Notes: generated by a model not told the origin, from the sequence alone. A DNA stretch of 64,000 bases from an uncultured Candidatus Saccharibacteria bacterium (GCA_964610055.1 CAZSUC010000001.1:588977-652976), one strand, 5' to 3'. Positions 28,314 to 54,545 are shown, numbered from the stretch's first letter. Numbers and translations are program-made.

Positions 28314-29662
28314 TAAATTCTATATTCTGCTTCGCTTAAATCTTCTTCGCCTACTATCTTAATCGCGCTATTTCCATGGCTTAAATACAAAAGCCGATCA
28401 TAAATATGCACATTTTCCGTACCGATCGCACCCAGCCCCGACACACATTGAATTAAAGGTTGTACATCAACTAAATCAGCCGCACTATTTGTCCTATTTC
28501 CTAATGAAAAATCATTTAAACTCCCTCCTGTTTTCAGGAATGGCCATATCACTAAACCTAAAAACACCACCGCTCCCGCACCACTGACAGTTATTGTTCC
28601 TAATTGAATCCAACGCACACTATATCTCTTTAAAAACTTTCCGTACCCAATGCCGGACAATACCCATATTCCCAAACTTACTAAAACAAAATAACGCAAT
28701 GTAAACCGATCAATCATATACAGTAAAGCGCTTAAATGTATCACTAACCCAATCAGCCACGCCCCAGCCTGCACTCGTTTTCGCGGCAATACAATAGCTA
28801 AAATTACTCCCACACATAATAATCCTAAAATAGTTATTTGCACTCCGCCCGGAAATTCCTGCCCCGTATAACGCGCTATAAACGATGACCCGCTCACAGC
28901 CACGCGCAAAATACCGGGTAAATCATGCCAACGCTGACCCATTAAATCGGCCACAGCCGTCGGATCACCTTGGTCATCCGTAAACAACTGCAACATAATC
29001 ATCTGTGTCCCAAAGGCAGCCCAAAAACCCACCGCTGCCGGCCACCATTCCCACCATGTCCGTAAAATTCGCCGAATCATATGTTTATTACCTTTTCTCT
29101 GTACTGCCTCAACCGTTTCTTTGATTAACCACACTAGTGCAATCGCTAATACCGTCGGCGCAAATAAAATATGCGTATGCATCCCTAAACCAGCCACCAC
29201 CCCCGCTAACAAATGCTTATAACGCCATTTCTTTTCTAACACCCACAATAACAAAAATGACCAGAAGGGAATTAAAGTAATCCCCCAACCAATTCGTTGA
29301 TAAGTTAAATAAATAGGCGAAAATCCCATCATCACTGCTCCTATTAAACCAACTGATCGCCCGAATGTTTTTTCCAACACAGCAATCGCCAATAAATAGG
29401 TTATTATCGACACTATCAGCATCGGCACCCGTAACGCCAAGGCTGTATATCCAAACACTTTAATAAAAGGCACACGCACGTAATCCATTAAAGGCCCAAT
29501 ATATGACCTTTCTCCTTTGAAGACCAACTCTTCTGCTTGAGTCAGCTCCCATGCATTTTCTCCCTCCGACCCCTCATCTCCCATTAACCCCGGCACACTT
29601 CCCAGCCAGGCCATATTAATCACTATAAACAGTCCTAATAAACCTAATTTCACTTTATCCAT
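28232..29662 (-). CDS. GT-C glycosyltransferase, family 39/83-like (ArnT/PMT-type)
   Basis: 476 aa. GDEGSEGENAWEL...IGPLMDYVRVPFIKVFGYTALALRVPM... matches the ArnT/PMT first-loop DE motif and helix pattern. Confidence 0.75.
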   Translation of the reverse strand: MDKVKLGLLGLFIVINMAWLGSVPGLMGDEGSEGENAWELTQAEELVFKGERSYIGPLMDYVRVPFIKVFGYTALALRVPMLIVSIITYLLAIAVLEKTFGRSVGLIGAVMMGFSPIYLTYQRIGWGITLIPFWSFLLLWVLEKKWRYKHLLAGVVAGLGMHTHILFAPTVLAIALVWLIKETVEAVQRKGNKHMIRRILRTWWEWWPAAVGFWAAFGTQMIMLQLFTDDQGDPTAVADLMGQRWHDLPGILRVAVSGSSFIARYTGQEFPGGVQITILGLLCVGVILAIVLPRKRVQAGAWLIGLVIHLSALLYMIDRFTLRYFVLVSLGIWVLSGIGYGKFLKRYSVRWIQLGTITVSGAGAVVFLGLVIWPFLKTGGSLNDFSLGNRTNSAADLVDVQPLIQCVSGLGAIGTENVHIYDRLLYLSHGNSAIKIVGEEDLSEAEYRIYYRDGKTESLSGIEACPELKYFVVEKI

Positions 29663-29664: not shown

Positions 29665-31620
29665 CTAAAGTTGGTATGCAATATCACCTGACTTAGCGAC
29701 CGGCTCTGTCTCTCCTTTGCGTTGCAAAAACATATTACCGGGACGTAGATCTTCATCAATGTACCGGACAGTTACTGCGTTTCCGGCTGTCCCGTCAGGA
29801 CTGGTAATAGCCACGTAAAATTCATGTCCCGCCGCTTCTGTAATCGGATCAAACTCAAAGCGCTTCCATTCGTTGTCTATAATTTCACTGGCATTCACTG
29901 TCACTCGTCGCAACGCGGTTGCCGAATCTGGCCGCTCCTTAATTTCCAACACGACTTCCGCTGTATTATTTCGACTCGAAAAAGTCGCAAACCCAATTTC
30001 GACCGCATTCCAATTATCCTGCTCGGGCTGCACAGTTTGCCCCACTTCCATTCCGCTCGTTAACTCGCCTACATGCTTCGTGAAATATCCAACTGTCATT
30101 GTCTCGTAAATCCAGGCATAAGGCACACCATGTATTGAAACAGTATGTACTGGCGTCTTGTCTTTCACTTCATCTAAAACGTTACTCGCTTGATCATCCA
30201 GAGCTCTTCCCCCCATATTACGATAAGTAATAATGTAACCTACTCGATAATCGTCTCTCGCACTTAAGCTAAATACTTTTCCCTGAAAATACGGCCGCAT
30301 CACGTTCGGATACCAAGAAGCAACTGTTAATTTGTCTCCCAACGGATTTTCATTCAACCAATCAGCCGCTAAATCTAACCCTTCCCCCCACCCCTGCTGA
30401 CTCAAAGAACGCACATTAGGAAATATCGGATTATTATACGCAATCGCATACGGCGCCCACCGCCACCATGTCACTCCCGCTAATATAACTACCAACCCAA
30501 TCAGAATTAATTTATCTCGCTTCTTACTGTGCCACCACGTCATCCCTTGCGCTAACATCCAACCTGATAGAATAGGCCCTATAACCAATGCCGGCATTGC
30601 GTAACGATCCCCTTTCTTAGCCGCCAACGAAATCAATACTAGAAAACCAACAGCATACACAATCATCCAAACCATTGTCTGCGCTCCTTTATCTCGTCGT
30701 TTAACCGCCGCATATAACACATAAACCACAGCCGCTATACTCAAAATTTGTACCCACGGAGTTACTCTCCCTAAAACTGTTCGCACATAAAACGAGGCTG
30801 GCGAAATAGGCTCATCTGATATTTCTAACGCCACATGCTCATCCTCTAAAACCGTCTGCGTATCTTTAGCAATATATCCTAATTGAAAATCCTTCCGAGT
30901 TAACATTGTCGGCCATAAAATTACCAAGACCACCACCGCTATTACGCCCCACATTGCCATTTCACCTAAAACTCGCTTCCAATTCTTCCCTCGCTCCCAA
31001 TACAAATCAATCATCCACATTAAACCAGCAACTGGCCCCAACCAAAATGCTAATACCATTTTTACTCCTAACGCCGCCCCCGCAAAAACTGCGCTAGTAA
31101 TCAAATAACCAGTCTTACGCCGTCGTCGAAACTGAATAAACCACAACAAAGACGTTAACATCAGCATCGCTTGTAACATATCCAAATGCGCCACCATACT
31201 CATCCCTACTACATACGGCTCCAACGCCAACATTATTCCTGCCAACCACGCCATCTCTTTTCCCCAGATCTGACTTAATAGATACGCCACTAATCCAATC
31301 AGACCTGACACAACTATCGCAACTGGCACAGTCGCTGCTTTTCTAAAGCCAATCACATTATTGTCATCTAATTCCACTCCGCTTATTTTTTCTTTTACCA
31401 CAATTCCCGCTCCCATGATCCACATTCCCGTTGCACCCGGATGACTCGTTAAGAATGTCCCGCTAATATCACCAGCGGCTAACTTAGCGTAAAACTCATT
31501 ACTTCGCATCATCCAGTTTTCTTCATCGGCCGTCATAAACGATCCAATCCCAACCAATCGCACACTTATCGCTAGCATCCCGATTACAATCCCAATTATA
31601 ATGTCTTTTACTTTTATCAT
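29665..31620 (-). CDS. GT-C glycosyltransferase (ArnT/PMT-type) with C-terminal soluble module
   Basis: 651 aa. The N-terminal ~500 aa are paralogous to 40168-41676 (FMTADEENWMMRS vs YMTVDEEAWMLRS; ASWYPNVMRPYFQGKVFSL vs ASWYPQVLQTYFRGEVVSL). The C-terminal ~135 aa are homologous to the N-terminal module of 41673-44324. Confidence 0.75.
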   Translation of the reverse strand: MIKVKDIIIGIVIGMLAISVRLVGIGSFMTADEENWMMRSNEFYAKLAAGDISGTFLTSHPGATGMWIMGAGIVVKEKISGVELDDNNVIGFRKAATVPVAIVVSGLIGLVAYLLSQIWGKEMAWLAGIMLALEPYVVGMSMVAHLDMLQAMLMLTSLLWFIQFRRRRKTGYLITSAVFAGAALGVKMVLAFWLGPVAGLMWMIDLYWERGKNWKRVLGEMAMWGVIAVVVLVILWPTMLTRKDFQLGYIAKDTQTVLEDEHVALEISDEPISPASFYVRTVLGRVTPWVQILSIAAVVYVLYAAVKRRDKGAQTMVWMIVYAVGFLVLISLAAKKGDRYAMPALVIGPILSGWMLAQGMTWWHSKKRDKLILIGLVVILAGVTWWRWAPYAIAYNNPIFPNVRSLSQQGWGEGLDLAADWLNENPLGDKLTVASWYPNVMRPYFQGKVFSLSARDDYRVGYIITYRNMGGRALDDQASNVLDEVKDKTPVHTVSIHGVPYAWIYETMTVGYFTKHVGELTSGMEVGQTVQPEQDNWNAVEIGFATFSSRNNTAEVVLEIKERPDSATALRRVTVNASEIIDNEWKRFEFDPITEAAGHEFYVAITSPDGTAGNAVTVRYIDEDLRPGNMFLQRKGETEPVAKSGDIAYQL

Positions 31621-31659
31621 GCATTACTTATAGTACAATAATTCTAATTAATAAACCGA

Positions 31660-33930
31660 ATGTCGCCTTTTTCTCGTCCTTACTTTGCCTTATTAATTGT
31701 TAGCGCTTTAGCGCTCTGGCCGCTTTTTTTCGGCCGTTTTTACGGTATTGGCGATACACGCTCCGTTTATATTCCCATCGAGCATTTTTTTGCTGAGCAA
31801 CAACGGCACTTTAATTTACCGGCCTGGATGCCAGACACTGCTTGGGGTTTTCCGGTAATTGCTTCTGCTCAAATCGGTTTCTTTTATCCGCCTCTTTTAC
31901 TGACACGCTTCTTACCTATCTTTATTTACCTGCCGTTATTACTCTGGCTCCACATCTTTTTTCTCGGTATCGGCGCCTATCGTTTGGCCCGAACCCTAAA
32001 TATTAGTCAAAACGGCGCCCTGATTACCGCCCTATCCATTGCTCTTAACGCCTTTCTTTGGCAGCACTTAACCCACCTAAACATTATTTTTGCTTTGGCT
32101 TGGTTTCCTTGGCAATTACTCGCCGCTCATTACTTAGCCAGATCACATCGACCTAATTTCAAACAATTTGCCGGCTTAGTTTTCACTTTAGGCCTCCCGT
32201 TTTTAGCTGGCCAACTTCAAGTTCCTTTTCTCACCGCTCTTTTCTCTACCATTTATTATTTCGTTTCTTTACCCAAAAAGCCTTTCCCCTCTCGACATCT
32301 CCTCATTTTCCTCGGCGCAACTCTTTTGACTATTACTCTCACCGCCGTCCAAACATTTCCCACCCTAGAGCTCACATTCCTTTCCAGCCGTGGATCAACT
32401 AATGAATTTTCTTTGGAACGAGCTAATCAACATAGTTTTCCTATTTATCATCTACCCACCTTACTTTTTCCACGCTTTTTCGGCTCAGATAATACTTATT
32501 GGGGGAAACGTATTGAAATAGAATACGGCTTTTTCTTCGGCGTCATTCCGCTATGCCTCAGCTTTATTGCTATATTCAACAAATCACGTCGTTACCGTTT
32601 CTGGATTATCAGCGGCTTCATAGCTTTTCTGTTAAGCCTGGGCGAATTTTCTCCTTTTCGCTTAGTTGGCTTAGAGCCATCGCTCTGGTACTTTTCTGCT
32701 CCCGCCCGTTGGCTATTCTTCACCGTTTTTTCTGGATCAATCCTTGCTGGTTTTGGTTATGATCTTTTGCCTAATATCTCACCTCGTTACCTGCGCATCC
32801 TTAAATCAACTATTGTAACCATATTAAGCTGCGTCATTTTATATAATCTCGTCCTTTGGCTCTTGCCGGAAAATTTTGCTTCTTATGTTCTAACCTGGTT
32901 GCAATCACAAAATCTCACCGGCGCTCGCGATTCAGCCTATTATTTAGATAAGATTAATTCCTTACTCTCCTCTGCAAAACACACGGGCTTATCACTTGCT
33001 TCGCCATATACTTACATCACTCTCATTCCTTTGCTCGCCATTCCATGGCTCTTCCAAAAACATCACTCGTGGCTTATTCCTCTCACAGCTATTGAACTCA
33101 TCTTAATTGCCAGTACGGCCAATCCAAGTGTTACTTGGTCCAATATTCTAACTCCTCCTGCCAGCATCTCTGCCCTTCCTCAAAGTGTTACCAGCGATCA
33201 CGCTCGCATCATTTCAATCTCAGCTCCCGGCGATACAGGGCTTTGGCTAACTAACCCTGAAACCCGTGCCGATACCGCTCGTCGCGAACAATATCGTCAA
33301 CAACTCGAACCACTCACTCACTCACTTTTTAATCTTGCCGGTTCTCAATGGCCCGCCTCGCTGGATCTACAATCTCAGGCACATACTTTAGAAAATTTAC
33401 TCGAATCACGCCAAGATCAACTATACATTGATTCTGACAAAGCCGCTGCTCTCAATATCGGTGCTGCCTTAATTGCCAACGAAGCTCCCCACACTGTTTC
33501 AGAAGTACTACCCCAAAATATTGCACCGAATATCTTCTTGTATTCCTTCTCTCCTCAACCTCGCGCTTCTCTTTTAACTGAAGACCAAACCGAATTAGCG
33601 CTTCCATACGACAACACTAATCCTAATCACCAAACTTATACCCTCTCATCATCTACTCCCGCGACCCTTATTATTCGCGACACCTGGTACCCTGGTTGGC
33701 AAGCCACACTTGACGACCAACCCGTTAACATTGATACCTATAACAATATTTTCCGTTCTGTTTCGGTTCCCTCCGGATCACATACCGTTTCTTTCACCTA
33801 TCATCCTACTTGGCTTTATTACGGTCTAGCTATTTCGCTTACCACTCTTGGTTTTCTAATATTTGTGCTGATGTACAATAATCATATCTACACTGTTCCC
33901 TTTATTTTAAGGAGGAAGACCATTGGCTGA
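31660..33930 (+). CDS. YfhO-family polytopic membrane protein
   Basis: 756 aa. Contains NLPAWMPDTAWGFPVIASAQIGFFYP, and the C-terminal RDTWYPGWQATLDDQPVNIDTYNNIFRSVSVPSGSHTVSFTYHP plus a terminal TM. Confidence 0.75.
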   Translation: MSPFSRPYFALLIVSALALWPLFFGRFYGIGDTRSVYIPIEHFFAEQQRHFNLPAWMPDTAWGFPVIASAQIGFFYPPLLLTRFLPIFIYLPLLLWLHIFFLGIGAYRLARTLNISQNGALITALSIALNAFLWQHLTHLNIIFALAWFPWQLLAAHYLARSHRPNFKQFAGLVFTLGLPFLAGQLQVPFLTALFSTIYYFVSLPKKPFPSRHLLIFLGATLLTITLTAVQTFPTLELTFLSSRGSTNEFSLERANQHSFPIYHLPTLLFPRFFGSDNTYWGKRIEIEYGFFFGVIPLCLSFIAIFNKSRRYRFWIISGFIAFLLSLGEFSPFRLVGLEPSLWYFSAPARWLFFTVFSGSILAGFGYDLLPNISPRYLRILKSTIVTILSCVILYNLVLWLLPENFASYVLTWLQSQNLTGARDSAYYLDKINSLLSSAKHTGLSLASPYTYITLIPLLAIPWLFQKHHSWLIPLTAIELILIASTANPSVTWSNILTPPASISALPQSVTSDHARIISISAPGDTGLWLTNPETRADTARREQYRQQLEPLTHSLFNLAGSQWPASLDLQSQAHTLENLLESRQDQLYIDSDKAAALNIGAALIANEAPHTVSEVLPQNIAPNIFLYSFSPQPRASLLTEDQTELALPYDNTNPNHQTYTLSSSTPATLIIRDTWYPGWQATLDDQPVNIDTYNNIFRSVSVPSGSHTVSFTYHPTWLYYGLAISLTTLGFLIFVLMYNNHIYTVPFILRRKTIG

Positions 33931-34126
33931 TGACAAAGACCAAGACGAACGAAACCGACGACTTACAGAAGCCCTTGCGCCGTTAGGGCGAGGCGAGCTT
34001 CCTGACGGTACACCCATTGACCTAGCCGCCATCTCTGAACGTGCAAATCGGAAAGCCTGGATTTTTGCGCGCCGGCTTAGAGATAGCGCAGTACGTGACA
34101 ACCGCCGATACAAGGGTCAACACTAG
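33923..34126 (+). CDS. Small hypothetical protein (67 aa), paralog of 34285-34476
   Basis: TTG start lies 7 nt after GGAGG (33911-33915). It shares ERNRRLTEALAPL...IDLAAISERA with the second copy, and a perfect terminator follows. Confidence 0.5.
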   Translation: MADDKDQDERNRRLTEALAPLGRGELPDGTPIDLAAISERANRKAWIFARRLRDSAVRDNRRYKGQH

Positions 34127-34141
34127 CCCACCTCCTTACGT

Positions 34142-34169
34142 CCCGTGCCACATCGGCACGGGCTTTTTT
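34142..34169 (+). terminator. Rho-independent terminator
   Basis: CCCGTGCC-acatc-GGCACGGG forms a perfect 8-bp stem, followed by C and T6. Confidence 0.7.
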
Positions 34170-34284
34170 ACAATTTATTCCGTCCCAGTCTCTCATACCG
34201 GTATAAAATTTCTACTTTTGTAGATCGATATAGTATATTAACTTTATCTTTTGTTCCCTTCACTTTTAGTAGGAGGATAAACCG

Positions 34285-34476
34285 TTGGATAATGAAAACG
34301 AACGAAACCGACAACTTACCGTGGCTCTCAATCCATTAAGGACAGGTCTATCATTATCTGACCTCTCCGCAATCGCTGACCATGCCACAGACGACGCCAT
34401 GTCGCATGCCAAAGCAGTTCGTTCAGGAACAGCAAGGACCAGAGCTAAACACAGGTTAGGCCCATACAAAGGCTGA
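34285..34476 (+). CDS. Small hypothetical protein (63 aa), paralog of 33923-34126
   Basis: TTG start lies 8 nt after GGAGG (34272-34276). It carries ERNRQLTVALNPL...LSDLSAIADHA. A 20-nt stretch, gaacgaaaccgacNacttac, is shared between the two copies (33947-33966 and 34300-34319). Confidence 0.5.
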   Translation: MDNENERNRQLTVALNPLRTGLSLSDLSAIADHATDDAMSHAKAVRSGTARTRAKHRLGPYKG

Positions 34477-34509
34477 CCTTTGCGCACCATCACAGTCAGG
34501 AGAATTTTC

Positions 34510-34788
34510 ATGGCAGCAGAAACTTATCATTTCATCCTTTTAGGAAGCCCTCTCTCACGAACAGACTTCCTTAATCCGCTTAAAAGGCGGATACAATTCG
34601 ACATGGGCAAGACAGCTCTCGCTCAAGTCCCAGGCATACGTTTCGGTACCGAATTTCCTATTGCTTGCGCCGTAACCATCACCTGCCCGCGAGAATCACT
34701 GCCAGAACTCCACCGGATCATGACTGAACACAGTTTTCAAGAAGGTAGCCAGGAGATTTCAATCAAAACAGCCAGAGAAATCGCCTAA
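34510..34788 (+). CDS. Hypothetical protein (92 aa)
   Basis: ATG 34510 lies 7 nt after AGGAG (34498-34502). No recognisable motif. A terminator follows. Confidence 0.5.
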   Translation: MAAETYHFILLGSPLSRTDFLNPLKRRIQFDMGKTALAQVPGIRFGTEFPIACAVTITCPRESLPELHRIMTEHSFQEGSQEISIKTAREIA

Positions 34789-34814
34789 CACACCTCCTCC
34801 TTCATCATCCTACT

Positions 34815-34841
34815 CCACCAAGCCAGTCTTGGTGGATTTTT
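34815..34841 (+). terminator. Rho-independent terminator of the small-gene unit
   Basis: CCACCAAG-ccagt-CTTGGTGG forms a perfect 8-bp stem followed by ATTTTT. The U-tract overlaps the stop codon of the convergent ATPase gene. Confidence 0.65.
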
Positions 34842-36135
34842 ATATCCACATCCTATCAATCAATTCTCGCGGTTGTCCGTACCGTAATCGATTTACCGCC
34901 TGCACCTCTACCTTCCCTATAGCCGTTTCTAAACTTAACGGCGGCAAACTCTGCCCCCGAAATGCTCGGTACGTAATTCCGGCCTGAGTCAGACGGATAA
35001 AAAAGTGATATGGCGGCAAGTCCTGAAAATCCTCCACTTGAATCGCCTGCCCCTTATCCCACGATGTTTGCTGAAAGGCCGGCAGTAACGCTTCCGCATC
35101 ATTTGCCCCTATTTGAAAAGCCACCAACGTTCCTACATTACCCAACACCGCCTCTCGCACCTCGTCAGTTAATTGCGCCACATACTGATTAGTTAAATGC
35201 ACAGCTAATCCGTACTTGCGCGCTTCCGACAACATAGAAATGAATGTTTCCGTCATCACATTCTGAAATTCATCGACGTATAAATAAAAGGGAACCCTGT
35301 CTTCGACCGGCATATCGGCACGACGCATTATCGCCGCCTGTAACTTTGCCATCAAAATCAATCCCAACATATATGAATTTAATTCTCCCAGTCTTCCTTT
35401 AGACAAATTCACAATCAAAATTTTGCCATGATTCACAATCTCATCAAACGCCAAAGCATTGCGCTTCTGACCGATGATATTGCGCATCGTCGTATTTGTC
35501 ATAAAGCGACCAAACTTGGAAGTAAAATAATTCAACATTTCCGAGCGATGAAACTGCGCGGTTTTTGCCATCTGCTCTTCCCAAAATGACAATACGACCC
35601 GATCTCGCACATGGCGACGTTTTTCTTGCTCAAATTTTTCATCCGTAAATAAGCGCGGAATCTCAATCAAAGTTCCGCCCGCCGGATCGGCCATAACTGT
35701 TAAAGCCGCATTTCGCATCCAGTGTTCAAACTGCGGCCCAATAATTCCCTGCTGATCCGGATCAAATAGTTTATAAAATATCTGAATCGCCTCGGCCACC
35801 AAAAAATCTTTCTCACTTTCAGTTTTACCATCCAATAAGTTCAAGCCTAATGGCCATTCCGTATCAGCCGGATCAAACAACACTACATCATCCAACCGCT
35901 CCGCCGGAATATTATTTAACAGCCAATCGCACACTTCTCCATGCGGATCAACAAAACAACACCCCGCCCCAGCCTGAATATCCTGCAAAATCATATTTTG
36001 ATACAAAGTCGATTTACCCGTCCCAGTTTTTCCAATGCAATACATATGTCGCATCCGATCTTGCGGTGCTGTTTGAATACTGCGCATTTGATTGCGAAAT
36101 TCAGCGTGTCCAATTACATTCATTCTTTCTGTCAT
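34840..36135 (-). CDS. Soluble FtsK/HerA-superfamily P-loop ATPase, TraD/VirD4 (type IV coupling protein)-like
   Basis: Walker A CIGKTGTGKST, then FVDPHGE, Walker B FYLYVDEFQ, and the C-terminal LSEARKYGLAVHLTNQYVAQL...LGNVGTLVAFQIGANDAE (TraG/TraD C-terminal-type pattern). No TM segment is visible. Confidence 0.8.
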   Translation of the reverse strand: MTERMNVIGHAEFRNQMRSIQTAPQDRMRHMYCIGKTGTGKSTLYQNMILQDIQAGAGCCFVDPHGEVCDWLLNNIPAERLDDVVLFDPADTEWPLGLNLLDGKTESEKDFLVAEAIQIFYKLFDPDQQGIIGPQFEHWMRNAALTVMADPAGGTLIEIPRLFTDEKFEQEKRRHVRDRVVLSFWEEQMAKTAQFHRSEMLNYFTSKFGRFMTNTTMRNIIGQKRNALAFDEIVNHGKILIVNLSKGRLGELNSYMLGLILMAKLQAAIMRRADMPVEDRVPFYLYVDEFQNVMTETFISMLSEARKYGLAVHLTNQYVAQLTDEVREAVLGNVGTLVAFQIGANDAEALLPAFQQTSWDKGQAIQVEDFQDLPPYHFFIRLTQAGITYRAFRGQSLPPLSLETAIGKVEVQAVNRLRYGQPRELIDRMWI

Positions 36136-36136
36136 T

Positions 36137-36361
36137 TCAGCTCCTTTCTACCATTGTAAAATAATTAGCCGGAATAGGACGTGGCGGCAATCCCGGTCGC
36201 ATCACCATAACTACTTTTGTTTCCACCTTAGCTTCAGACGTAATCTTCACTGTCCGCCGCCATGCTTCCAAACGGTTTTTAATTACTCTCTGCGTTTCTA
36301 TTGGCAGCCAATGCTTAATTCGCTCATACTCCTCTTCTACTTTGTGTAATTTTGCTATCAT
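36137..36361 (-). CDS. Small hypothetical protein (74 aa)
   Basis: ATG 36361 overlaps the upstream TGA (ATGA), and its own stop lies 1 nt before the next ATG. This translationally coupled position is the main evidence. Confidence 0.55.
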   Translation of the reverse strand: MIAKLHKVEEEYERIKHWLPIETQRVIKNRLEAWRRTVKITSEAKVETKVVMVMRPGLPPRPIPANYFTMVERS

Positions 36362-38043
36362 ATTGTTTCTTTCATCATCCATTGCCCGATCGCTGATTCC
36401 GCCGTTTGTTCTAGCCATCTTTTCAACGGCCTAACCCCGAACCGCGGATCATATTTCTGCTCAATGTGTTGTCTAATCATATTATCCGACATCGACAAAT
36501 TAACTCCCAAATGACTGAATCGTCTTTCAATCTTCTGTAGTTCCAACCGTCCGATCATCACTAAAGTTTCCGGCGCAAACGGAGCAAAAACAGCAATTCC
36601 CTCAAACCGATTCAAAAACTCCCACCGAAAATATTTAGTCAGCAATGGCAACATCCGCCGACTTAACCATTCCGCACTTGTTACATCCTCTCCTGCCTGC
36701 CAATCAGTCACAATTTCACTTATCCCTATATTCGAAGTCGCCACAATCACGGTTTTCCGGAAATCGATTGTTCGTCCTTGCCCATCAGTTAAACGCCCAT
36801 CTTCTAACACTTGTAAAAAAATATCAAACACCGCTTTATCGGCTTTTTCAATTTCATCCAATAAAACTAACGAATATGGCCTTTGTTGTACTGGATTAGT
36901 TAATTGACCACCACTCTCATACCCAACATAACCAGGTGGCGCACCAATTAAACGCTGTACATTATGTGCTTCCTGGTATTCCGACATATCAACCCTTACC
37001 ATCGCCTTATCTCCGCCGTACAATTCTCGCGCCAACACACGCGCCACCTCTGTTTTACCGACTCCGGATGGACCTAAAAACAAAAATGAACCCAATGGTC
37101 GATCCGGATTCTTCAATCCTAACCATGACCTTTCGATTACTTTTGTTACCATATTTACTGCTTGATCCTGACCAATGACCTGCGCTGCTAATCTACCCCC
37201 CAACCCAGCAATGGCCTTCCTATCTCGCGTTTGAACTTTTATTGTCGACATCCCCAACTTATCACTCAAAACCCGCTGCGCATCTTCATATGCCACAATC
37301 CTCCGCCCCTGCACCACCGCCTCCGCTCCAATGTCATCTAAAAACCTAATTGCCCGTTCGGGCATCGCTAAGCTCGCTGGTAACTGACTCGCTAAATCAT
37401 AGATTGCTTCCGGCATATTAGCAGCCATCTTAATATTATGTTTGAATCCAAAATAAGCGGCGCGATCTCTTAAAATTTCCACCACATCTGCTTTTCCTAA
37501 TTCATCTAATCGAATCCATTCGAACTCACGTACATACTTCGGATAATTTTCCTTAAATTTTATTTCTCCTTCTAACGACAACGCTAACACTAATCTATGC
37601 CTCTGTTTCTGCCAAAACTTACTCCACACATCCGCCATCTGCGCTGTATTCATCACATACTCCAACAGCACCTCTGCCTTATCAATCACCAAAATACAGG
37701 CTGGTAGCGCTCCTAGTGCTTCTCCGTAAAGCCGTAATTTCGCGGCCGGATCATGCGCTCGATTCATTTTTTCCTGCCACCATTTCAAATCTAACTCCAG
37801 AATTGGTGTTTGAATTATCCCCTGCAAACTGCCTTTGACCGCCGCCTGCGCCAACCCTCTCAACAACGCTGTTTTGCCTACTCCTTCTCCTCCTGTCACC
37901 ACCACGTTATTCATTTGATCACGCTCAAATACTCGCGCCATCAAACTCAACTCTCGCTCCCGACCTCTCACTGGCCACTGACGAACTTGAGTAGCCTCTC
38001 GCACTAAATCAATTATATGTATTGTTTCTAATCGCTCAGGCAT
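36358..38043 (-). CDS. Clp/Hsp100-family double-AAA+ ATPase, short form (no N-domain, no M-domain, degenerate NBD1)
   Basis: NBD2 is intact: GPSGVGKT, LLDEIEKA, GAPPGYVGYESGGQLT, VIVATSN, FLNRFEGIAVFAPF and GVRPLKRWL. NBD1 keeps Walker A GGEGVGKT, but Walker B reads ILVIDKAE (E replaced by K) and the KYRGEFE-type pore loop is absent. 561 aa. Confidence 0.85.
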   Translation of the reverse strand: MPERLETIHIIDLVREATQVRQWPVRGRERELSLMARVFERDQMNNVVVTGGEGVGKTALLRGLAQAAVKGSLQGIIQTPILELDLKWWQEKMNRAHDPAAKLRLYGEALGALPACILVIDKAEVLLEYVMNTAQMADVWSKFWQKQRHRLVLALSLEGEIKFKENYPKYVREFEWIRLDELGKADVVEILRDRAAYFGFKHNIKMAANMPEAIYDLASQLPASLAMPERAIRFLDDIGAEAVVQGRRIVAYEDAQRVLSDKLGMSTIKVQTRDRKAIAGLGGRLAAQVIGQDQAVNMVTKVIERSWLGLKNPDRPLGSFLFLGPSGVGKTEVARVLARELYGGDKAMVRVDMSEYQEAHNVQRLIGAPPGYVGYESGGQLTNPVQQRPYSLVLLDEIEKADKAVFDIFLQVLEDGRLTDGQGRTIDFRKTVIVATSNIGISEIVTDWQAGEDVTSAEWLSRRMLPLLTKYFRWEFLNRFEGIAVFAPFAPETLVMIGRLELQKIERRFSHLGVNLSMSDNMIRQHIEQKYDPRFGVRPLKRWLEQTAESAIGQWMMKETI

Positions 38044-38044
38044 A

Positions 38045-39895
38045 TTAGACCATCATTGTCCGATTAACAGTTGTGCCACCCGTAATCTGACTGGATCTTA
38101 TCGTTCCTTCCTCTTCATCTTCTGTTCCTATAATTATCCCGCCACGATGACGCGCTTCTGCCGCTAACTCAATCTCTGTCCCTCTTTGCTTAATCTGACC
38201 AACATAATTATCTAAATCTACTCGCCAACCCGGCTTCTCTCTTTCATTTCTCCAATTTTCTCTTTCCGCCTCTGCTCTCCATTCATATCCAACCGGACCA
38301 TCTGTCACTTGCTCTAAACTATCCGGCTTCGTTTTCGCCTCATAAAAACGATACCTAACTGCATCCCCATCTCGCTCCACTACCGTTACATCCAACACTT
38401 CGCCTTTTACCGTACGCTCTCCCGAAAAATACTGCTGTTCTCTGTTTACTGCGCCTCTAATCACTTTTTCTAGCTCTCCTCGCTCTTCCACCGGCCACAA
38501 ATCCATCACACTCTTTTCTATTTGCTCCGGCATCAACGTTAAAGCGACTTTCTCTTCCATATCTAACTCAACATCAATACCCTGAATTTCCTCTCTTCTT
38601 ACCTCCGCCTTATAAACCGTTTCTACCTTCGGGTACTCTTTCTTTTCCCCAACCTTCACATCTACATTCACATCTACATCTATATTCTCTACATTATTTT
38701 CTCTTCCCTTTTCTAAAATCACTGGTCTTTCAGCTATTTTTTTCTCCTCCGTAATCGCAACTTCAACTCTTTCCTTAACTCTCGTAACGCTTTGCTCCGA
38801 TAAAACCTGGTCGGCTTTCACATCCACCGCTTTCGGCACTAGTCCCGGAAACATCTCCTGTAAACTCACTTCTACTTTCCTAGATTCATTTTTCTGTCCT
38901 AAATCAGTTTGCACTACTTCTGGCATTGAAGCAGCTTCTCTTTCCCCCGCATTTACATACTTTATCTCTATGGCTTCACTCGGCGTATTTTCTATCACCC
39001 GTACCTCTCCTGTCTTCGTCTCACCAGGTTCCTCTTGCTTTAACAACTCCTTACGCAACTCCTCATGATTCCAAACTTCTTCTAGCTGCGGCTCTTCAAC
39101 CTGCCTCTGCTCCACAAACACATCAGAATTAATCGTATTTTCAGATGCTTGTTCTTCTAGTTCTTCTCTTTGATCATCTACTTCCACTCTTTCACCAACC
39201 ATATCCATCGCATTTATATAATTTATCTCAATGCCTTCACTCGACGTATTTTCTATCACTTGCACCTCTTCTTCTCTCACCTCATTGCTTTGCTGTTCTT
39301 GTACCACTACCACTTCTTCTCTAACAAGCTCTTCACTTATCTCATCAACCATACTTTCTGCTTGCGCTTCAATCTCTACTTGTTCTACTTGCGCTTCATC
39401 TTCACTGCCTATCCACTCGTCGCTTTCTTCATTCAAATTAACCGGTACTTCACGAAATTGCACTAACATATATTCTGTTTCTCGTTCTCCCCACTCATTC
39501 ACTTCGTCTTTGACCACCACTGCACAACTTTTAAACTCATGATAAGCCACATATCCACTTTTCGCGCCACATAATGTTTCAAATTGCCCTTCTTCATCCA
39601 TTCCTTCACTACTAATCTCCTGATCATTCCAAAATACCCGTCTCTTACCAGTCGCGTCTTCCCTCACCACGCATTTATATGTCTGCGCCATTTCTAGTCT
39701 TTGCCCTGTCCCTTGCTCTAAATCAACTCGAGCTGATTCTAATCTCATTGTCATTCGCTCATGTTCTTCTGTCTGGCGTTCCTTTTCCGATGCTAATTCT
39801 TCTGCTTGAACCTGTACCTCAGATTCAATCTCTTCAACATCCAACATTTCCTCTAGGCTTTCTTCGGTTTCCGCTATGTTTATACTTTCAGGCAT
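38045..39895 (-). CDS. Hyper-acidic repeat-containing protein (616 aa), function unknown
   Basis: ATG 39895 lies 8 nt after AGGAG. The long central region is Glu/Val/Gln-rich with an internal duplication (EVQVIENTSSEGIEINYINA and EVRVIENTPSEAIEIKYVNA). There is no signal peptide or TM segment. Its stop lies 1 nt before the Clp-like gene's start. Confidence 0.75.
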   Translation of the reverse strand: MPESINIAETEESLEEMLDVEEIESEVQVQAEELASEKERQTEEHERMTMRLESARVDLEQGTGQRLEMAQTYKCVVREDATGKRRVFWNDQEISSEGMDEEGQFETLCGAKSGYVAYHEFKSCAVVVKDEVNEWGERETEYMLVQFREVPVNLNEESDEWIGSEDEAQVEQVEIEAQAESMVDEISEELVREEVVVVQEQQSNEVREEEVQVIENTSSEGIEINYINAMDMVGERVEVDDQREELEEQASENTINSDVFVEQRQVEEPQLEEVWNHEELRKELLKQEEPGETKTGEVRVIENTPSEAIEIKYVNAGEREAASMPEVVQTDLGQKNESRKVEVSLQEMFPGLVPKAVDVKADQVLSEQSVTRVKERVEVAITEEKKIAERPVILEKGRENNVENIDVDVNVDVKVGEKKEYPKVETVYKAEVRREEIQGIDVELDMEEKVALTLMPEQIEKSVMDLWPVEERGELEKVIRGAVNREQQYFSGERTVKGEVLDVTVVERDGDAVRYRFYEAKTKPDSLEQVTDGPVGYEWRAEAERENWRNEREKPGWRVDLDNYVGQIKQRGTEIELAAEARHRGGIIIGTEDEEEGTIRSSQITGGTTVNRTMMV

Positions 39896-40097
39896 ACAAA
39901 AAACTCCTACATGCACAACACGCATGAGGAGAAATCACTAAAAATCCTTATGCGCGTAGGCTCAACAAAGGATTCAGGCACTCTGACTTATGGCTTTTAG
40001 CCCATCACAGTTGCGGCATACCAGCGCCGGATTCTCACCGGCTTTCCCTGATCACACTTTTCAGTGCGCGTGGTGCGAACCACGCCAATCCTCTTTA
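39896..40097 (-). promoter_or_regulatory. Cobalamin riboswitch-like 5' leader (aptamer ~39966-40096, expression platform 39896-39965)
   Basis: The minus-strand RNA reads AUCAGGGAAAGCCGGUGAGAAUCCGGCGCUGGUAUGCCGCAACUGUGA (40005-40050) plus the B12-box-like GCCAUAAGUCAGAGUGCCUG (39975-39994). These are closed by P1 AAGAGGAUU/AAUCCUUU. Downstream, hairpin 39904-39931 (CUCCUCAUGC-guguugu-GCAUGUAGGAG) sequesters the SD and is followed by U6 and then the ATG. Confidence 0.8.
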
Positions 40098-40167
40098 AAA
40101 ATTAATGTGCACTCTTAGCTTACCGCCGTTCCCTTGGCCCCACAATCAGTTTTTTGCACAGGCTCGT

Positions 40168-41676
40168 TTATTTAGCGTATATCCAAACATAAGGCACGTC
40201 GTGCACCTTTATAACCTCCACCGGCACGACATCTTTCATTGCCGCTAACGCCTGACTCGCCAAAGTGTCTTCTCCGCGACCACCCATGTTTCTATAGGTC
40301 ACAATATAATCAACATGTTCATTCTCCCGAGCCGCTAAACTAACTACCTCGCCCCTAAAATATGTTTGCAACACTTGCGGATACCAAGATGCAACCGTTA
40401 ATTGTTCCGCCTCTGTCTGCGCGTTTAACCAAGCTGCCGCCGCTTCTAACCCCTCACCCCATCCTTGCTGACTTAGTGGCCGTATCTCCGGTAATAAAGA
40501 ATTATTATACGCAATCAAATAACTATCTCGCCAATTAGCCCATGTCCAAACGGATAGAAATACCACCACGCCTATCGCAAACCCTTGCCATGTTTTTTTT
40601 CGTCTCGCCAAAGTTATCTTTGCCGTTACCCATCCCGTCAACACCGGCCCCACAACCAACGCTGGCAATGCATACCGATCCGCTTTTTTCGCCGCCCAAG
40701 TCATAATAACCAAAAAGCCAATCGCATAAACATACATCCAAACCATTTCTTGGCTGTGCTTTTGTTTCCGCACTATTACTATTAATGCTGCTACCCAGCC
40801 AAATAACACCAGCGGCGTACTCCGACCCAATGCGGTTCGCATATAAAAAGTCGCGGGCTGAATCGCATCCGTCCCAGCATCTAACTCAACATGCTCCCAA
40901 GTAACTGCTGTCCCAATATCACGCGTAAATGAACGACTCATATCTGCTTTCACCCACGCCGCTGGCCATGCCACCCAAAACACCAGTCCTGCTACTCCAA
41001 TCACCGTGCCCAAAGTTCGCAACATTATATTTATTTTTCCTGACTTGCCCCATAACTTCCACACCACCCACCCCATCATCATTGGCACTAGCCATAACGC
41101 TAAAATTAATTTCGTTGCCGCTGCTAGCCCAAACCAAATACCTGCTCCAACTAGCCAACGCCATTTTTGCTTTTGCCACCAGACCATCCACGCCAACCAA
41201 CTATTCAACATGAACAATGCCAATAATCCATCCAAATGCACAATCTGCGTCGCTCCTGCTAAATACGGATCTAACGCCAAAAATATTCCAGCTAACCAAC
41301 CGACTGGCGCCCCTCCTAAGATCGTCAACATAAATGCCGCTATCCCAATCATCCCAGCCGCCGCTAAACTCACGGGCAGAACAGCTGCCTTACGAAAATG
41401 TTGTAAATTACCTGGCTGAACTGTTACTCCTAAACGTGTTTCTTGCACCACTTCCCCTGCCCCTGCTAGCCACATTAAAGGCGCCCCCGGATGAGTTGTC
41501 ACAAATGTCGACGCTGGATCCATGGCTCGAATTGCCTGCCAATATTGAGCGCTGCGTAACATCCACGCCTCTTCATCCACTGTCATATATTGCCCTAACC
41601 CCGGCCACCGCGCCAATAACGCTAAAACTCCGATACTAACTGGTATTATTCCTGCTTTCGCTTTAATCCAATTCAC
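40168..41676 (-). CDS. GT-C glycosyltransferase (ArnT/PMT-type), paralog of 29665-31620
   Basis: 502 aa and polytopic, with extended similarity to the first ~500 aa of the 651-aa protein. Confidence 0.75.
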   Translation of the reverse strand: MNWIKAKAGIIPVSIGVLALLARWPGLGQYMTVDEEAWMLRSAQYWQAIRAMDPASTFVTTHPGAPLMWLAGAGEVVQETRLGVTVQPGNLQHFRKAAVLPVSLAAAGMIGIAAFMLTILGGAPVGWLAGIFLALDPYLAGATQIVHLDGLLALFMLNSWLAWMVWWQKQKWRWLVGAGIWFGLAAATKLILALWLVPMMMGWVVWKLWGKSGKINIMLRTLGTVIGVAGLVFWVAWPAAWVKADMSRSFTRDIGTAVTWEHVELDAGTDAIQPATFYMRTALGRSTPLVLFGWVAALIVIVRKQKHSQEMVWMYVYAIGFLVIMTWAAKKADRYALPALVVGPVLTGWVTAKITLARRKKTWQGFAIGVVVFLSVWTWANWRDSYLIAYNNSLLPEIRPLSQQGWGEGLEAAAAWLNAQTEAEQLTVASWYPQVLQTYFRGEVVSLAARENEHVDYIVTYRNMGGRGEDTLASQALAAMKDVVPVEVIKVHDVPYVWIYAK

Positions 41677-44324
41677 ACTGCACTCGCTTTAATTCGATGC
41701 ATGAACACCAGCGTGTTTGATCCATTCTCTACTTCATGAACTGTTTCAAAATCAGTTTCCATCCCTGCCTCAATCTCGGAATACTCCATCAAAAATGAAA
41801 ACCCAGTTTGTTTTTCTAGTAACACCCATTCCGCCTCACGCCAAGCCTGAACCATCTCTTCGGCGGAAGGCAAAAACACATTCAGTCTTTCTGGGTTCTT
41901 TCGTGTAAATTCATAGGCATACCAACGCGGATGAGCAATATCTAACGACACATGATGACCAGATAAATATGGTACTGCCGCTGCTCCCGTAAAAATCGGT
42001 TTATCTGATGGAATATTTTCCTGCGCCCATTCTGCCGCCTCACGCAAAGAATCTTGCTGAAAAGTTCCAGTGTGCTCAAACGTTGCCGTAATATAATTTG
42101 ATAAATAAACTGCCCACATAATCACTAGTATACTTATCACCGCCAATGGGCGGCGTACCATTTCTCCTTTACCTACCACAAACAAACGTCTCCACAACCA
42201 ATAAGCTCCTACCGCCGCCAATATCGTCAGAGGTGGCAAAAATTCAATAATGTAATTCGCATGAAACTTAATCCAATTCCAGTAAAAGAAGGCTAAGCCT
42301 AAAAACCACGCCAACAAGACCAATGCACTCGCTAGCATCTGTCCCGCCGATTGTTCTCCCGGTGCCACTTTAATTGACTGTTTAATTTCAAATTGAGCTT
42401 GTGCTCCTGAAACTACATTCATCGGTATATTCACCCCTGCATCCGGCTGCGTACTAGCTTTAACTTGAGATGACGCCACCCATCCTTCTTCATTACTACG
42501 CGGCCATACAGTTGCAATCAGTAAAACACTCATCATACCCCACCATAACCCTCGCATTCCACCCATTGATAAAAACGGTTCTCCTTCATATTCAAAGAAA
42601 AATCCATGCGCCCACCACCACCCTAACCATGCCAATAACCAGCCTATTTTTGGCAGCACATGATCGACAATTACAATAGTGATCTTGTCCGACTTATCAC
42701 TGACCCACTTTCGCGCTATCACCCGTAACCATCTTTCCCACATCATTCCAACTCCCACCAGCGCCAAAATTATTAGCGGCAATGATTCTCGGAAAAACGG
42801 CGTCATGCCTCGAATTGAATATTCGCGCACTTGTTCCGCCTCTGCCGGATCAATTGCGGTTTGCCCATCTTCCGCTGAATTAAAACCACTCACTTCCCAC
42901 AAGCCTTGTGTACCATACTGACCATATGCCCACCCTAACAACGCCGAAATTACTAACAAAAATCCCGCCCCAATCAAAACTAAACGCTGGAATTTATTGC
43001 GCCATCCTCGCGACTCAATCCAGACTAATAATAACGGCACAATCCCTAACGCTAGAATACTCTTACGCGAAGCAACACCTAACCCCAATAAAAGACCACC
43101 TATTAACAAGCGATATCCTAATTTCCGGCCTCCCAGATGACCCCGCAACGCCGTCCATATCACCGCGATTCCACTAATCCCAAATAACATCGCCACTGGC
43201 TGAGTGTGCACATACACTGTACTCACTGCTGCCGATCCCAACATCCCCCACATTACCGCTGCCAATAATCCTGTTCGTTTGTTATGTGCTTCTCGTCCAA
43301 TAAAATACATCGGAATGATTGTCAGCACTCCAGCCATAATTGATCCCATGCGTCCCGCTAAAATTGTCGGTCCCATTATTAACTGCCATAATGCCACCCA
43401 TAACAACATAATCGGCGCCTTCACATAACCATCCCCTCCGGCTAAGTGTCCGCGCAATAATGTTTGCGCATCATACAAATAATTACCCTCATCATTAGTC
43501 ACCGGCATTTCTACGGCATATCTGATACGCCATAAAGTCGCCAATATCATGACTAAAGCAATAATCGTTCCCACTACTACTCGATTTAATTCTTTTTCCT
43601 GAGCTTGCCCGCTCAAAACTACTATTGCTCCTACAACCACCGCAGCCGCCAACGCTAAAATCATCCAGTTATAATACGTTCCTTCCCGTGTATCCCAAGT
43701 TCCCACTACCCACCGCGCCTGATTCCCAACAGTGGTAATAATAGCTTCTCGCAACGTCACATCATGATGAGCTATAAACGCCACATCCACCGTTGGCTTT
43801 CCTGACCGCGCAATTACCTCCGCCCCTATCTGCCCTTCGCTGTTCCGCACTAAAAATGCTGACCCTAAGTGATAAGGATCTTGCGTGTTCAAATCAACAG
43901 TCACTGCATTTCCCACCACTGACGCCGGCGAAGTAATCGCGAAGAAATAAGTTTTTCCTTTGCTATTCGCAATCGGATCAAACTCAAACCGATAAAATTG
44001 ATTATCTCCTAGCTCCTGCGGCTCAGCTATGACAGTCCGCAAATTTTCATCACTTGTATAGGACTCTCGTAAATAGAAATAAACCGGCGCCGTGTTGTCC
44101 CTCCCCGAATACGTTGCAAACATTACGCTTACTGCCGACAAGTCATCTGCATCCGCCACAAAAGTCTGTCCTACTAACGCATCGCCCGTTAATTCACCTG
44201 CGTTAGTTGTATATTCCTTAATTTCCGTGTCATTTTGCTTAACCTTAATAAAATTCGCTGACACTGCTGCAGCCGCTAAAACAACTACCACAATTAAAAA
44301 CCAAATTTTTGTTGATGATCGCAT
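41673..44324 (-). CDS. Large GT-C glycosyltransferase with N-terminal anchored soluble module
   Basis: 883 aa. A signal-anchor is followed by a module (GELTGDALVGQTF...YRFEFDPI...FFAITSP...GNAVTV), then many TM helices with an ArnT/PMT-like pattern (NDEGNYLYDAQ). Confidence 0.75.
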   Translation of the reverse strand: MRSSTKIWFLIVVVVLAAAAVSANFIKVKQNDTEIKEYTTNAGELTGDALVGQTFVADADDLSAVSVMFATYSGRDNTAPVYFYLRESYTSDENLRTVIAEPQELGDNQFYRFEFDPIANSKGKTYFFAITSPASVVGNAVTVDLNTQDPYHLGSAFLVRNSEGQIGAEVIARSGKPTVDVAFIAHHDVTLREAIITTVGNQARWVVGTWDTREGTYYNWMILALAAAVVVGAIVVLSGQAQEKELNRVVVGTIIALVMILATLWRIRYAVEMPVTNDEGNYLYDAQTLLRGHLAGGDGYVKAPIMLLWVALWQLIMGPTILAGRMGSIMAGVLTIIPMYFIGREAHNKRTGLLAAVMWGMLGSAAVSTVYVHTQPVAMLFGISGIAVIWTALRGHLGGRKLGYRLLIGGLLLGLGVASRKSILALGIVPLLLVWIESRGWRNKFQRLVLIGAGFLLVISALLGWAYGQYGTQGLWEVSGFNSAEDGQTAIDPAEAEQVREYSIRGMTPFFRESLPLIILALVGVGMMWERWLRVIARKWVSDKSDKITIVIVDHVLPKIGWLLAWLGWWWAHGFFFEYEGEPFLSMGGMRGLWWGMMSVLLIATVWPRSNEEGWVASSQVKASTQPDAGVNIPMNVVSGAQAQFEIKQSIKVAPGEQSAGQMLASALVLLAWFLGLAFFYWNWIKFHANYIIEFLPPLTILAAVGAYWLWRRLFVVGKGEMVRRPLAVISILVIMWAVYLSNYITATFEHTGTFQQDSLREAAEWAQENIPSDKPIFTGAAAVPYLSGHHVSLDIAHPRWYAYEFTRKNPERLNVFLPSAEEMVQAWREAEWVLLEKQTGFSFLMEYSEIEAGMETDFETVHEVENGSNTLVFMHRIKASAV

Positions 44325-45353: not shown

Positions 45354-45402
45354 TGCCTATCACGGTAGCAGAAAAATTCTGTGTCTGCATCTCTAATTCT
45401 TT

Positions 45403-45441
45403 AACAAAACCCCTTAAAGAAAGACGCATTTCCTTAAGGGG
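45403..45441 (-). terminator. Rho-independent terminator
   Basis: The minus strand forms CCCCUUAA(g)GAAA-ugcguc-UUUC(u)UUAAGGGG followed by UUUUGUU. It lies 12 nt after the stop of the 149-aa ORF. Confidence 0.6.
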
Positions 45442-45452
45442 CGAATAAACAC

Positions 45453-45902: not shown

Positions 45903-45969
45903 CTCTCTTCTCCTGTATGAGTGAAACTTTGTCTCAGTGAAAGGTACGATCAATTACACTCTCACGATT

Positions 45970-47109: not shown

Positions 47110-47114
47110 TGCAA

Positions 47115-48053: not shown

Positions 48054-48068
48054 ATCTTTGTCTTTCTA

Positions 48069-48953: not shown

Positions 48954-48984
48954 AAGTCTTCTGCTTAATTAAGACTAACCTATA

Positions 48985-49014: not shown

Positions 49015-49077
49015 TAGGAATAGGGGAGTCCCCTCCGCCATTTATCATATACTTATCGCCTGCCGGCTACCACTCCT

Positions 49078-50055: not shown

Positions 50056-50097
50056 TTCCTTATTATTCCTAATTATCTTTAAAAAAGGAACTGCAGT

Positions 50098-54544: not shown

Positions 54545-54545
54545 A

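Follow-up and report, generated by a model that had tools for sequence, protein, structure and literature searches.

A two-ATPase operon with a cobalamin-class leader between paralogous GT-C genes of an uncultured Candidatus Saccharibacteria bacterium

The locus and its bracket genes

A stretch of 64,000 nucleotides from an uncultured Candidatus Saccharibacteria bacterium (GCA_964610055.1, CAZSUC010000001.1:588977-652976), referred to here in its full length as the window, carries two paralogous genes for membrane proteins of the GT-C type, between which lie a YfhO gene, a patch of small genes and a four-gene operon (op1 to op4) encoding two ATPases. A preliminary description of the window suggested that about 6 kb of unrelated cargo, with a riboswitch before its operon, had been inserted into, or retained within, a tandem GT-C array. 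Comparison with relatives from the candidate phyla radiation (CPR, or Patescibacteria) indicates that a 6.27-kb block made up of the operon and the small genes probably moved to this position long ago, and that it is not a mobile island. All of the genes previously placed between the paralogues were found by listing of open reading frames (ORFs) and Pfam searches. The layout is as follows (aa, amino acids).

23569-26346, + strand: membrane protein, 925 aa
26343-28313, + strand: 656-aa protein with a weak YfhO match
28232-29662, - strand: PMT_2 protein (GT-C), 476 aa (Pfam)
29665-31620, - strand: GT-C paralogue A, 651 aa, GT39/PMT-type, full-length with a C-terminal extra domain (Pfam PMT, 32.9 bits, and PMT_2)
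31660-33930, + strand: YfhO-family GT-C-like membrane protein, 756 aa (Pfam YfhO, 61 bits)
33.9-34.8 kb, + strand: small-gene patch with three ORFs (ORF listing)
34840-39925, - strand: four-gene operon op1-op4 (626/616, 561, 93 and 431 aa; ORF listing and Pfam)
40106-40167, - strand: right junction and presumed operon promoter region, with no homology to the sequence after the stop codon of the GT-C gene in contigs L027/L028
40168-41676, - strand: GT-C paralogue B, 502 aa, GTG start, short form (Pfam PMT_2, 29.9 bits)
41673-44324, - strand: PMT_2 protein (GT-C), 883 aa (Pfam)

The two bracket genes, which had been called same-strand paralogues, are real ORFs on the - strand and their products are 44% identical over 505 aa (BLASTP, E 2e-136). 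Both exceed the curated Pfam cut-offs (22.7 bits for PMT in A, 26.1 bits for PMT_2 in B). Paralogue A has ten hydrophobic segments, and with 9-10 each the two proteins are apparently polytopic. An aspartate and a glutamate in the first loop (D34 and E35) are invariant in an alignment of 22 members of the GT-C family. From profile matches and topology, the bracket genes appear to be ordinary members of the GT39/PMT_2 and YfhO families.

In this the locus resembles the GT39 (PMT/ArnT-like) and YfhO clusters of Patescibacteria, as both paralogues and their neighbours match PMT/PMT_2 or YfhO. The usual length in the GT-C family is ~650 aa. Unlike typical GT39 members, paralogue B and its orthologue on contigs L027/L028 are without the C-terminal domain of ~150 aa, and the ~150 C-terminal residues of paralogue A have no counterpart in paralogue B. 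Short forms of ~500-530 aa occur sporadically in the homologue list (P0007, P0018, P0038, P0044, P0053 and P0099).

None of the seven products of the intervening block has a transmembrane segment, compared with 7-14 in the flanking GT-C proteins. The block is obviously a functional stranger among membrane GT-C genes.

Synteny, junctions and the origin of the block

A profile scan for the GT-C family, with one genome per species, gave 23 loci, on which all window proteins were mapped. By source name the nearest homologues belong to CPR/Patescibacteria, the closest of all to Candidatus Andersenbacteria, and 20 of the loci are accordingly termed Andersenbacteria-type. From L003 to L021 the order GT4 (379 aa), epimerase (339 aa), 883-aa GT-C and GT-C (~650 aa) is kept in most Andersenbacteria-type genomes. 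In two Andersenbacteria-type metagenome-assembled genomes (L002 and L004) GT-C, YfhO (reverse) and GT-C follow each other with a gap of 0-100 nt between GT-C and YfhO and no insert. The cluster is rearranged in L015 and L017 (YfhO in reverse, GT-C, GT-C), so that YfhO orthologues lie between or beside GT-C genes in L002, L004, L015, L017 and L028. No homologue of op2 or op4 was present within 10 kb at any of the 20 Andersenbacteria-type GT-C loci; relatives with the same intervening genes in the same place, which would have spoken against an insertion, were thus not among them.

The best homologue of paralogue B (P0002, 55% identical, 498 aa) is encoded on the JGI contigs L027/L028, the closest relative found. 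Flank proteins on these contigs are 55-85% identical to those of the window (epimerase 83%, 883-aa gene 69-85%, YfhO 60%), and the order is 883-aa gene, short 498-aa GT-C and YfhO (reverse). The convergent genes for GT-C and YfhO share ~50 nt at their 3' ends in L028 but are separated by 6.2 kb in the window. The C-terminal ends of paralogue B (...VPYVWIYAK) and of the L028 orthologue (...VPYVWIYVR) match. Because the L027/L028 orthologue ends at the same residues, the short form of paralogue B presumably predates the event. Truncation of paralogue B by the insertion was considered and rejected, as this orthologue is equally short in the absence of an insert.

In a rough neighbour-joining tree, paralogue B falls together with the short gene of L027/L028 and paralogue A with the full-length copies, and the A/B duplication is therefore likely to be old. 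The GT-C genes appear to be old paralogues in a conserved Andersenbacteria cluster for envelope glycosylation, and the YfhO gene between them is best regarded as an ancestral member of that cluster rather than as cargo. The array was not strictly tandem, as had been supposed, since the intervening YfhO gene is itself GT-C-like and apparently ancestral. The ancestral order would have been 883-aa GT-C, GT-C(B), YfhO (reverse), GT-C(A) and 476-aa GT-C.

A metagenome scan with an op4 profile yielded 80 loci, ~75 of them with room for op2. In every one of the latter op2 precedes op4, with a gap large enough for a small gene, and in all loci with room an acidic ORF (490-960 aa, 15-24% aspartate plus glutamate) is located upstream of op2. 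Homologues of op4 number more than 5000. The best 120 are 57-70% identical and spread across CPR phyla, with labels such as Parcubacteria, Portnoybacteria, Doudnabacteria, Colwellbacteria and Pacebacteria.

In other CPR genomes the operon occupies quite different neighbourhoods, which also favours an insertion in the window. On a 416-kb Andersenbacteria-type contig (L025), which also has a GT-C homologue, it is flanked by DsbB/DsbA on one side and by ABC/FtsX/RF genes on the other. In the three closest op4 relatives (L109, L111 and a JGI 22-kb contig) it lies between a gene for a FAD-oxidase and xseA/xseB. Among 89 flanking ORFs there is no enriched family, none occurring more than seven times, and convergence of the operon with its downstream neighbour is common. 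With regulation and termination of its own, the unit could sit anywhere. It appears to be a self-contained, core CPR transcription unit in variable contexts, and as cargo it would not be foreign.

In the same three relatives xseA/xseB follow op4 with overlapping stop and start codons (L109 11281-12631, L111 10566-11869 and the JGI contig), which suggests co-transcription with op4. The window and most loci do not have this arrangement. A second op4 paralogue, 42% identical, is present 3.5 kb downstream of the first in L106 (381-1622 and 5148-6365).

The extra block of the window comprises positions 33894-40167 (6.27 kb), at the convergent junction of GT-C(B) and YfhO. Homology of the window YfhO to its L028 orthologue stops near ...LIF. 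The remaining tail (TVPFILRRKTIG) is encoded by 33894-33930. This stretch, made up of the last 12 YfhO codons and the stop codon, belongs to a repeat (D2 and D8, both direct) that is found again from 34252 onwards. As the tail is encoded by the first copy of the block's own repeat, the left junction is placed at ~33894. The right junction comes immediately after the stop codon of GT-C(B) at 40168. The last 12 codons of YfhO thus appear to have been replaced at the junction and GT-C(B) to have been left intact. The YfhO stop region overlaps the first small gene by 8 nt, in the Shine-Dalgarno (SD)/start region of the latter, and the same untranslated sequence recurs at 34252 without an upstream gene.

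The best explanation, in which we have considerable though not full confidence, is that a block formed by an autonomous core operon and three orphan genes was relocated long ago into the GT-C(B)/YfhO junction and is not a mobile island. In the lineage of the window it would have come to lie in a neutral, convergent junction. The direction of this event is what we infer from the comparisons. With regard to the cargo originally proposed, its insertion is favoured by the empty junction in the relatives and it is unrelated in function to its surroundings, but it is not foreign, as it appears to be a core CPR operon with host-like composition.

It is unlikely that the window shows the ancestral state, in which case the relatives would independently have lost or moved an operon and small genes that originally stood between the GT-C paralogues. 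The relatives are distant, and the fluid position of the operon across CPR makes repeated movement plausible. Such a history has to contend with a junction that is empty in three separate lineages (L002, L004 and L027/L028), with the rearranged L015/L017 cluster, which is also without the operon, and with the clean overlap of GT-C and YfhO in L028. Moreover, the YfhO tail is read from the repeat unit of the block, as expected of insertion here and not of deletion elsewhere, and the context conserved among the three closest op4 relatives is another one.

Several observations weigh against relocation into the junction. Polarity was assigned by parsimony over few, distant relatives (40-85% protein identity), and among those compared no genome was found that is close enough to show the empty donor site. 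The flanks of possible donor sites (FAD-oxidase, xseA/B, DsbA/B and ABC/FtsX genes) were searched for in the window and are absent. Furthermore, no mechanism of relocation is visible: the sole sequence common to both junctions is a 7-mer (TTTATTT), no more than expected by chance.

By none of the features tested, namely mobility genes, attachment (att) sites or tRNA genes, and deviant composition, does the block qualify as a mobile island. No ORF in it (33.9-40.2 kb) matches an integrase, recombinase, transposase, relaxase or toxin-antitoxin family in Pfam, NCBIfam or PADLOC, and there is no tRNA gene in the 64-kb window. Flanking direct or inverted repeats had not been noticed before, and a computational search for flanking or terminal (att) repeats likewise gave only short matches at chance level, with no notable tandem repeats. 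The GC content of op1-op4 is 0.43-0.45, similar to that of the flanks, and their GC skew at third codon positions is +0.58 to +0.76, as in resident genes of the - strand. As this skew is host-like, op1-op4 have probably long been resident, in this orientation, in such a genome.

The strand bias of the genome is extreme, with a GC skew of -0.32 over the window. At third codon positions it is ±0.45-0.76 and follows the replication (DNA) strand whatever the orientation of the gene. Strand bias is 0.25-0.40 in L002, L003, L010, L012, L014, L027 and L028 and only 0.02-0.07 in L004, L009, L015 and L025.

Acquisition of the block by horizontal transfer from another CPR organism, as a genomic island or mobile-element remnant whose small orphans are a decayed mobility or addiction module, seems just as improbable as ancestral presence. 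The small genes are orphan and tandemly duplicated, and deviate mildly in GC content (0.48-0.55 against 0.44) and by a weaker strand skew, but they are short. Partial PADLOC matches to ATPases of candidate defence systems (PDC-M37B, 8e-40; mad8, 4e-16) and the many contexts of the operon would also fit an island. These matches are limited, however, to generic AAA+/P-loop cores, and op1-op4 share the very strong strand-specific skew of the host. In addition to the missing mobility genes, tRNA and terminal repeats, op4 is 55-70% identical across CPR phyla and present once per locus, as expected of a core gene with vertical inheritance.

Although the source is a metagenome-assembled genome, an artefact of assembly or binning that joined unrelated contigs is hardly credible: a mis-join is excluded by a contig from the separate Logan assembly (L001, run SRR8925805; 10,057 bp) that is identical to window positions 30716-40772, spans both junctions and shows no strain-level single-nucleotide polymorphisms, and the exact op4 protein occurs with the same neighbours on three contigs, with composition continuous across the junctions.

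The operon and its leader

The four genes of the operon are all on the - strand.

38045-39895, - strand: op1, acidic protein, 616 aa (626-aa maximal ORF; ATG at 39895 with SD GGAG, in agreement with the Logan gene call)
36358-38043, - strand: op2, ClpA/B/C-type double-ring AAA+ protein, 561 aa (Pfam AAA_2, 7e-58, and ClpB_D2-small)
36137-36418, - strand: op3, small protein, 93-aa maximal ORF (ORF listing and position)
34840-36135, - strand: op4, soluble TrwB/VirD4-like P-loop ATPase, 431 aa (Pfam TrwB_AAD_bind, TraG-D_C and DUF87)

Op4, which would be an ATPase of the hexameric type, was modelled by AlphaFold2 (AF2) with a pLDDT of 89. The best Foldseek matches are Cagbeta (8dol) and TrwBdeltaN70 (1e9s), at a template-modelling (TM) score of ~0.63, with HerA next. 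In common with the TrwB/VirD4/Cagbeta and HerA/FtsK translocases, op4 has the nucleotide-binding and all-alpha fold (TM 0.60-0.65 to 1e9s, 1gl7 and 8dol; E ~7e-12) with conserved Walker A and B motifs. Unlike type IV coupling proteins, it has no N-terminal membrane anchor and no hydrophobic segment in its 431 aa, and genes for a type IV secretion system, relaxase or pilus are absent from the operon, the window and the 89 neighbouring ORFs. Similarity to TrwB at the sequence level is marginal (E 0.002, P-loop only), and scores against NCBIfam conjugation models are far below their cut-offs.

The second ring and small domain of op2 align with those of ClpB/Hsp104, ClpA and ClpC at E 1e-69 to 1e-96 (PDB). 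The two-ring body aligns to residues 187-714 of ClpA, and the ClpB alignment starts only at ~residue 530. Op2 differs from Hsp100 unfoldases in having neither an N-domain nor an M-domain and in the loss of the first-ring Walker B glutamate. Of 55 family members, 53 have D, N, G or K in place of this glutamate, whereas the motifs of the second ring are invariant. Op2 is therefore predicted to be a family-wide asymmetric AAA+ protein whose first ring is unable to hydrolyse ATP. At this position (op2 residues 117-126) the window has K and 50 of the 54 other homologues have D, N or G. Op2 falls far short of the equivalog cut-offs for ClpB, ClpA and ClpV (ClpB, 391 against 1232), and no ClpP-docking IGF/IGL loop was seen by eye. 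Op2 thus appears to be Hsp100-like without being ClpB, ClpA or ClpV.

Op1 is acidic (25% aspartate plus glutamate) and fast-evolving, and has an internal repeat. It has no match in Pfam, NCBIfam or PADLOC, and ten op1 homologues are likewise without a Pfam match. A jackhmmer search against 44 positional homologues returned op1 itself only, and the sole BLASTP match was a weak one to the L111 op1 (90 aa, 30%). The internal direct repeat (69 nt, 84% identity; 38943-39011 and 39204-39272) encodes two VIENTxSExIEIxYxNA segments and may be a sign of recent internal duplication.

The true start of op3 is probably internal, giving ~70-80 aa. An ORF of 68-77 aa occupies its position in L025, L110 and L111, and tblastn shows weak similarity to L109, L110 and L111.

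A known anti-phage defence system was considered for the operon with PADLOC and rejected, as there were only partial matches to ATPase cores (PDC-M37B, DolB and mad8) and none for op1 or op3.

Directly 5' of op1 lies the leader, for which the cobalamin-type matches in the window and in other loci were as follows.

39957-40105 of the window, - strand: cobalamin-class aptamer, 149 nt (Rfam Cobalamin, 27.4 bits, E 2e-5, local)
39896-39956 of the window, - strand: predicted expression platform with a hairpin able to sequester the SD (fold)
L033, 634-780: leader, AdoCbl, 66.7 bits
L061, 3258-3407: leader, AdoCbl, 64.8 bits
L099, 3451-3532: leader, AdoCbl-II, 52.7 bits
L045: leader, Cobalamin, 45.5 bits
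L060: leader, Cobalamin, 44.3 bits
L029: leader, AdoCbl-II, 42.8 bits
L046: leader, Cobalamin, 38.5 bits
L054: leader, AdoCbl-II, 38.1 bits
L109: leader, Cobalamin, 32.2 bits
L111: leader, AdoCbl-II, 34.4 bits (cut-off 36.5)

The window leader matches Cobalamin from end to end, with the GGGAA junction, the P4 hairpin GCCGGUGAGAAUCCGGC, P5, P6 and a B12-box-like AAGUCAG...CCUG, and the minimum free energy fold reproduces the architecture of the aptamer. It surfaced only through E-value thresholds and comparison with orthologues. In an iterated nhmmer search with the window leader as query, a homologue on the same strand and just upstream of op1 was found in 41 of 44 distinct loci. Nine orthologous leaders, all those listed except that of L111, score at or above the gathering score.

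Covariation was assessed in a core alignment of 22 sequences (A5), with a structure specified by the analyst. In this alignment 86% of cells are paired, and covariation is 0.43 compared with 0.155 after shuffling (0/500) and ≤ 0.137 for slid partners. Compensatory pairs occur in P4 (CG15/GC6/UA1 and CG9/AU6/UA4/GC3), P5 (UA17/AU5) and P6 (GC12/UA10). By homology and covariation the leader can be assigned to the short (class II) cobalamin riboswitch clan CL00101, and binding of the ligand is predicted. The riboswitch noted in the preliminary description is thus real on the evidence of orthologues and covariation, but the window copy is below the Rfam threshold. At the gathering score Rfam missed 12 of 16 CPR loci in one scan, and in all it detected only about a third of the loci scanned at that score: the curated models capture the CPR branch of the class only partly, and standard annotation misses most of the regulon.

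As in class II cobalamin riboswitches of the clan (RF00174, RF01482 and RF01689), the core motifs and covarying pairs are present and the leader is directly 5' of the first gene. Unlike these, it precedes genes without a known link to B12 synthesis, B12 transport or B12-independent isozymes. A further difference from the clan is 3' of the aptamer, where CPR leaders carry a near-invariant 11-nt motif (YCCCGAGCAGGA, in 36 distinct loci). In the window (39930-39960) and in L025 (~6150-6180) it is exchanged for CGCGCAUAAGG, and loop L5 has gained three nucleotides (GUA), giving UAUGC/GCAUA complementarity. These two related sequences suggest co-variation in a putative L5-L13 kissing loop. A second copy of YCCCGAGCAGGA followed by a U-run is present in L052, L056 and L057.

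Pairing is possible between CCUAC of the hairpin and the SD (GUAGGAG) that serves the op1 start at 39895. Binding of the ligand is likely to repress translation (an OFF-switch).

Proposed function, small genes and surroundings

The operon would consist of its own promoter region, the riboswitch, the four cytoplasmic proteins op1-op4 and a terminator. With corrinoid bound, the aptamer would dock with the loop of the downstream hairpin and the SD of op1 would be sequestered, so that the operon would be made only when B12 is scarce. Possibly, though we would not call it probable, this is an undescribed CPR-wide module for the response to B12 starvation, in which a corrinoid-sensing riboswitch gates a cytoplasmic machine that combines two ATPases with a hypervariable acidic partner. 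The parts of such a machine would be a soluble translocase resembling coupling proteins (op4), a ClpB-like unfoldase with a dead first ring (op2) and op1. Our best guess at its activity, which is doubtful, is ATP-driven unfolding and translocation, acting on op1 or on nucleic acid, as part of the response to B12 starvation. In one version, failure of B12-dependent ribonucleotide reduction would call for the machine to process imported or host-derived DNA or protein; the overlap of xseA/xseB with op4 in its three closest relatives hints weakly at this.

For the riboswitch and the machine there are also points on the other side. The window aptamer (27.4 bits) is below the Rfam gathering score of 31.5 and a standard Rfam scan of the window is empty; the leader of L025, the Andersenbacteria copy, has no Rfam match at E ≤ 1; and an AF2 model of op1 alone has a pLDDT of 38.

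To our knowledge the members of known B12 regulons are all synthesis genes, transporters or B12-independent isozymes. CPR bacteria are ultra-small, cofactor-auxotrophic epibionts, and we know of almost no riboswitch regulons described for them. The literature that was searched contained no description of the operon and no paper linking a riboswitch with op1-op4 or with cobalamin sensing in CPR. Sub-threshold Rfam scores would explain why neither annotation nor the searchable literature records the link between riboswitch and operon. The rearrangement itself is routine genome evolution, although cleanly documented, with a junction that rewrote the C-terminus of a gene. The by-product that deserves attention is that a B12 riboswitch and a two-ATPase operon are paired across CPR. 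If functional, the switch would be a tractable handle (addition or withholding of B12) on vitamin sensing and response in CPR epibionts, and a natural ligand-controlled expression element for CPR genetics.

The small genes are arranged as follows.

33894-34251, + strand: small-gene unit 1 (SD AAGGAGG, TTG start, 67-aa ORF at 33923-34126, hairpin and T-run terminator at 34142-34162)
34252-34476, + strand: small-gene unit 2 (SD TAGGAGG, TTG start, 63-aa ORF at 34285-34476)
34510-34788, + strand: 92-aa ORF (ATG, AGGAG 8 nt upstream)
34814-34836: hairpin and T-run terminator between convergent genes (terminator scan)

The two repeat units of ~355 bp start at 33894 and 34252, and their ORFs are 37% identical at the amino acid level with the common motif ERNRxLTxALxPL. 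Codons for conserved residues of the 67- and 63-aa ORFs differ by synonymous third-position changes (ACA/ACC, GCC/GCT, CTT/CTC, CCG/CCA and GGC/GGT), which argues that both are translated. A profile search with the 67-aa ORF returned only itself. An exhaustive HMMER search with the 92-aa ORF against 1.84 billion representatives gave itself and four borderline matches, the best of which (E 6e-6) covers 38 residues in a protein of 2976 aa. None of the small ORFs has a Pfam or NCBIfam match even at E 5, or a PADLOC match. All three are orphans in databases of 5.8 billion and 1.84 billion sequences and appear to be lineage-specific, and two of the genes form a tandem duplicate. The possibility that these ORFs encode a toxin-antitoxin pair or an excisionase was considered and is unsupported, the Pfam, NCBIfam, profile and HMMER searches being essentially empty.

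Beyond the GT-C genes, the regions 304-23503 and 44334-61466 make the whole window one surface-glycan supercluster, which is very large for a genome of < 1 Mb. It contains NeuB, DegT, an ATP-grasp enzyme, several GT2/GT4 enzymes and four epimerase/dehydratases. Also present are RmlA/D-like genes, GmhA/HldE/GmhB-like heptose genes, MurJ, an ABC exporter, DUF4012 and an ALG3-like GT-C.

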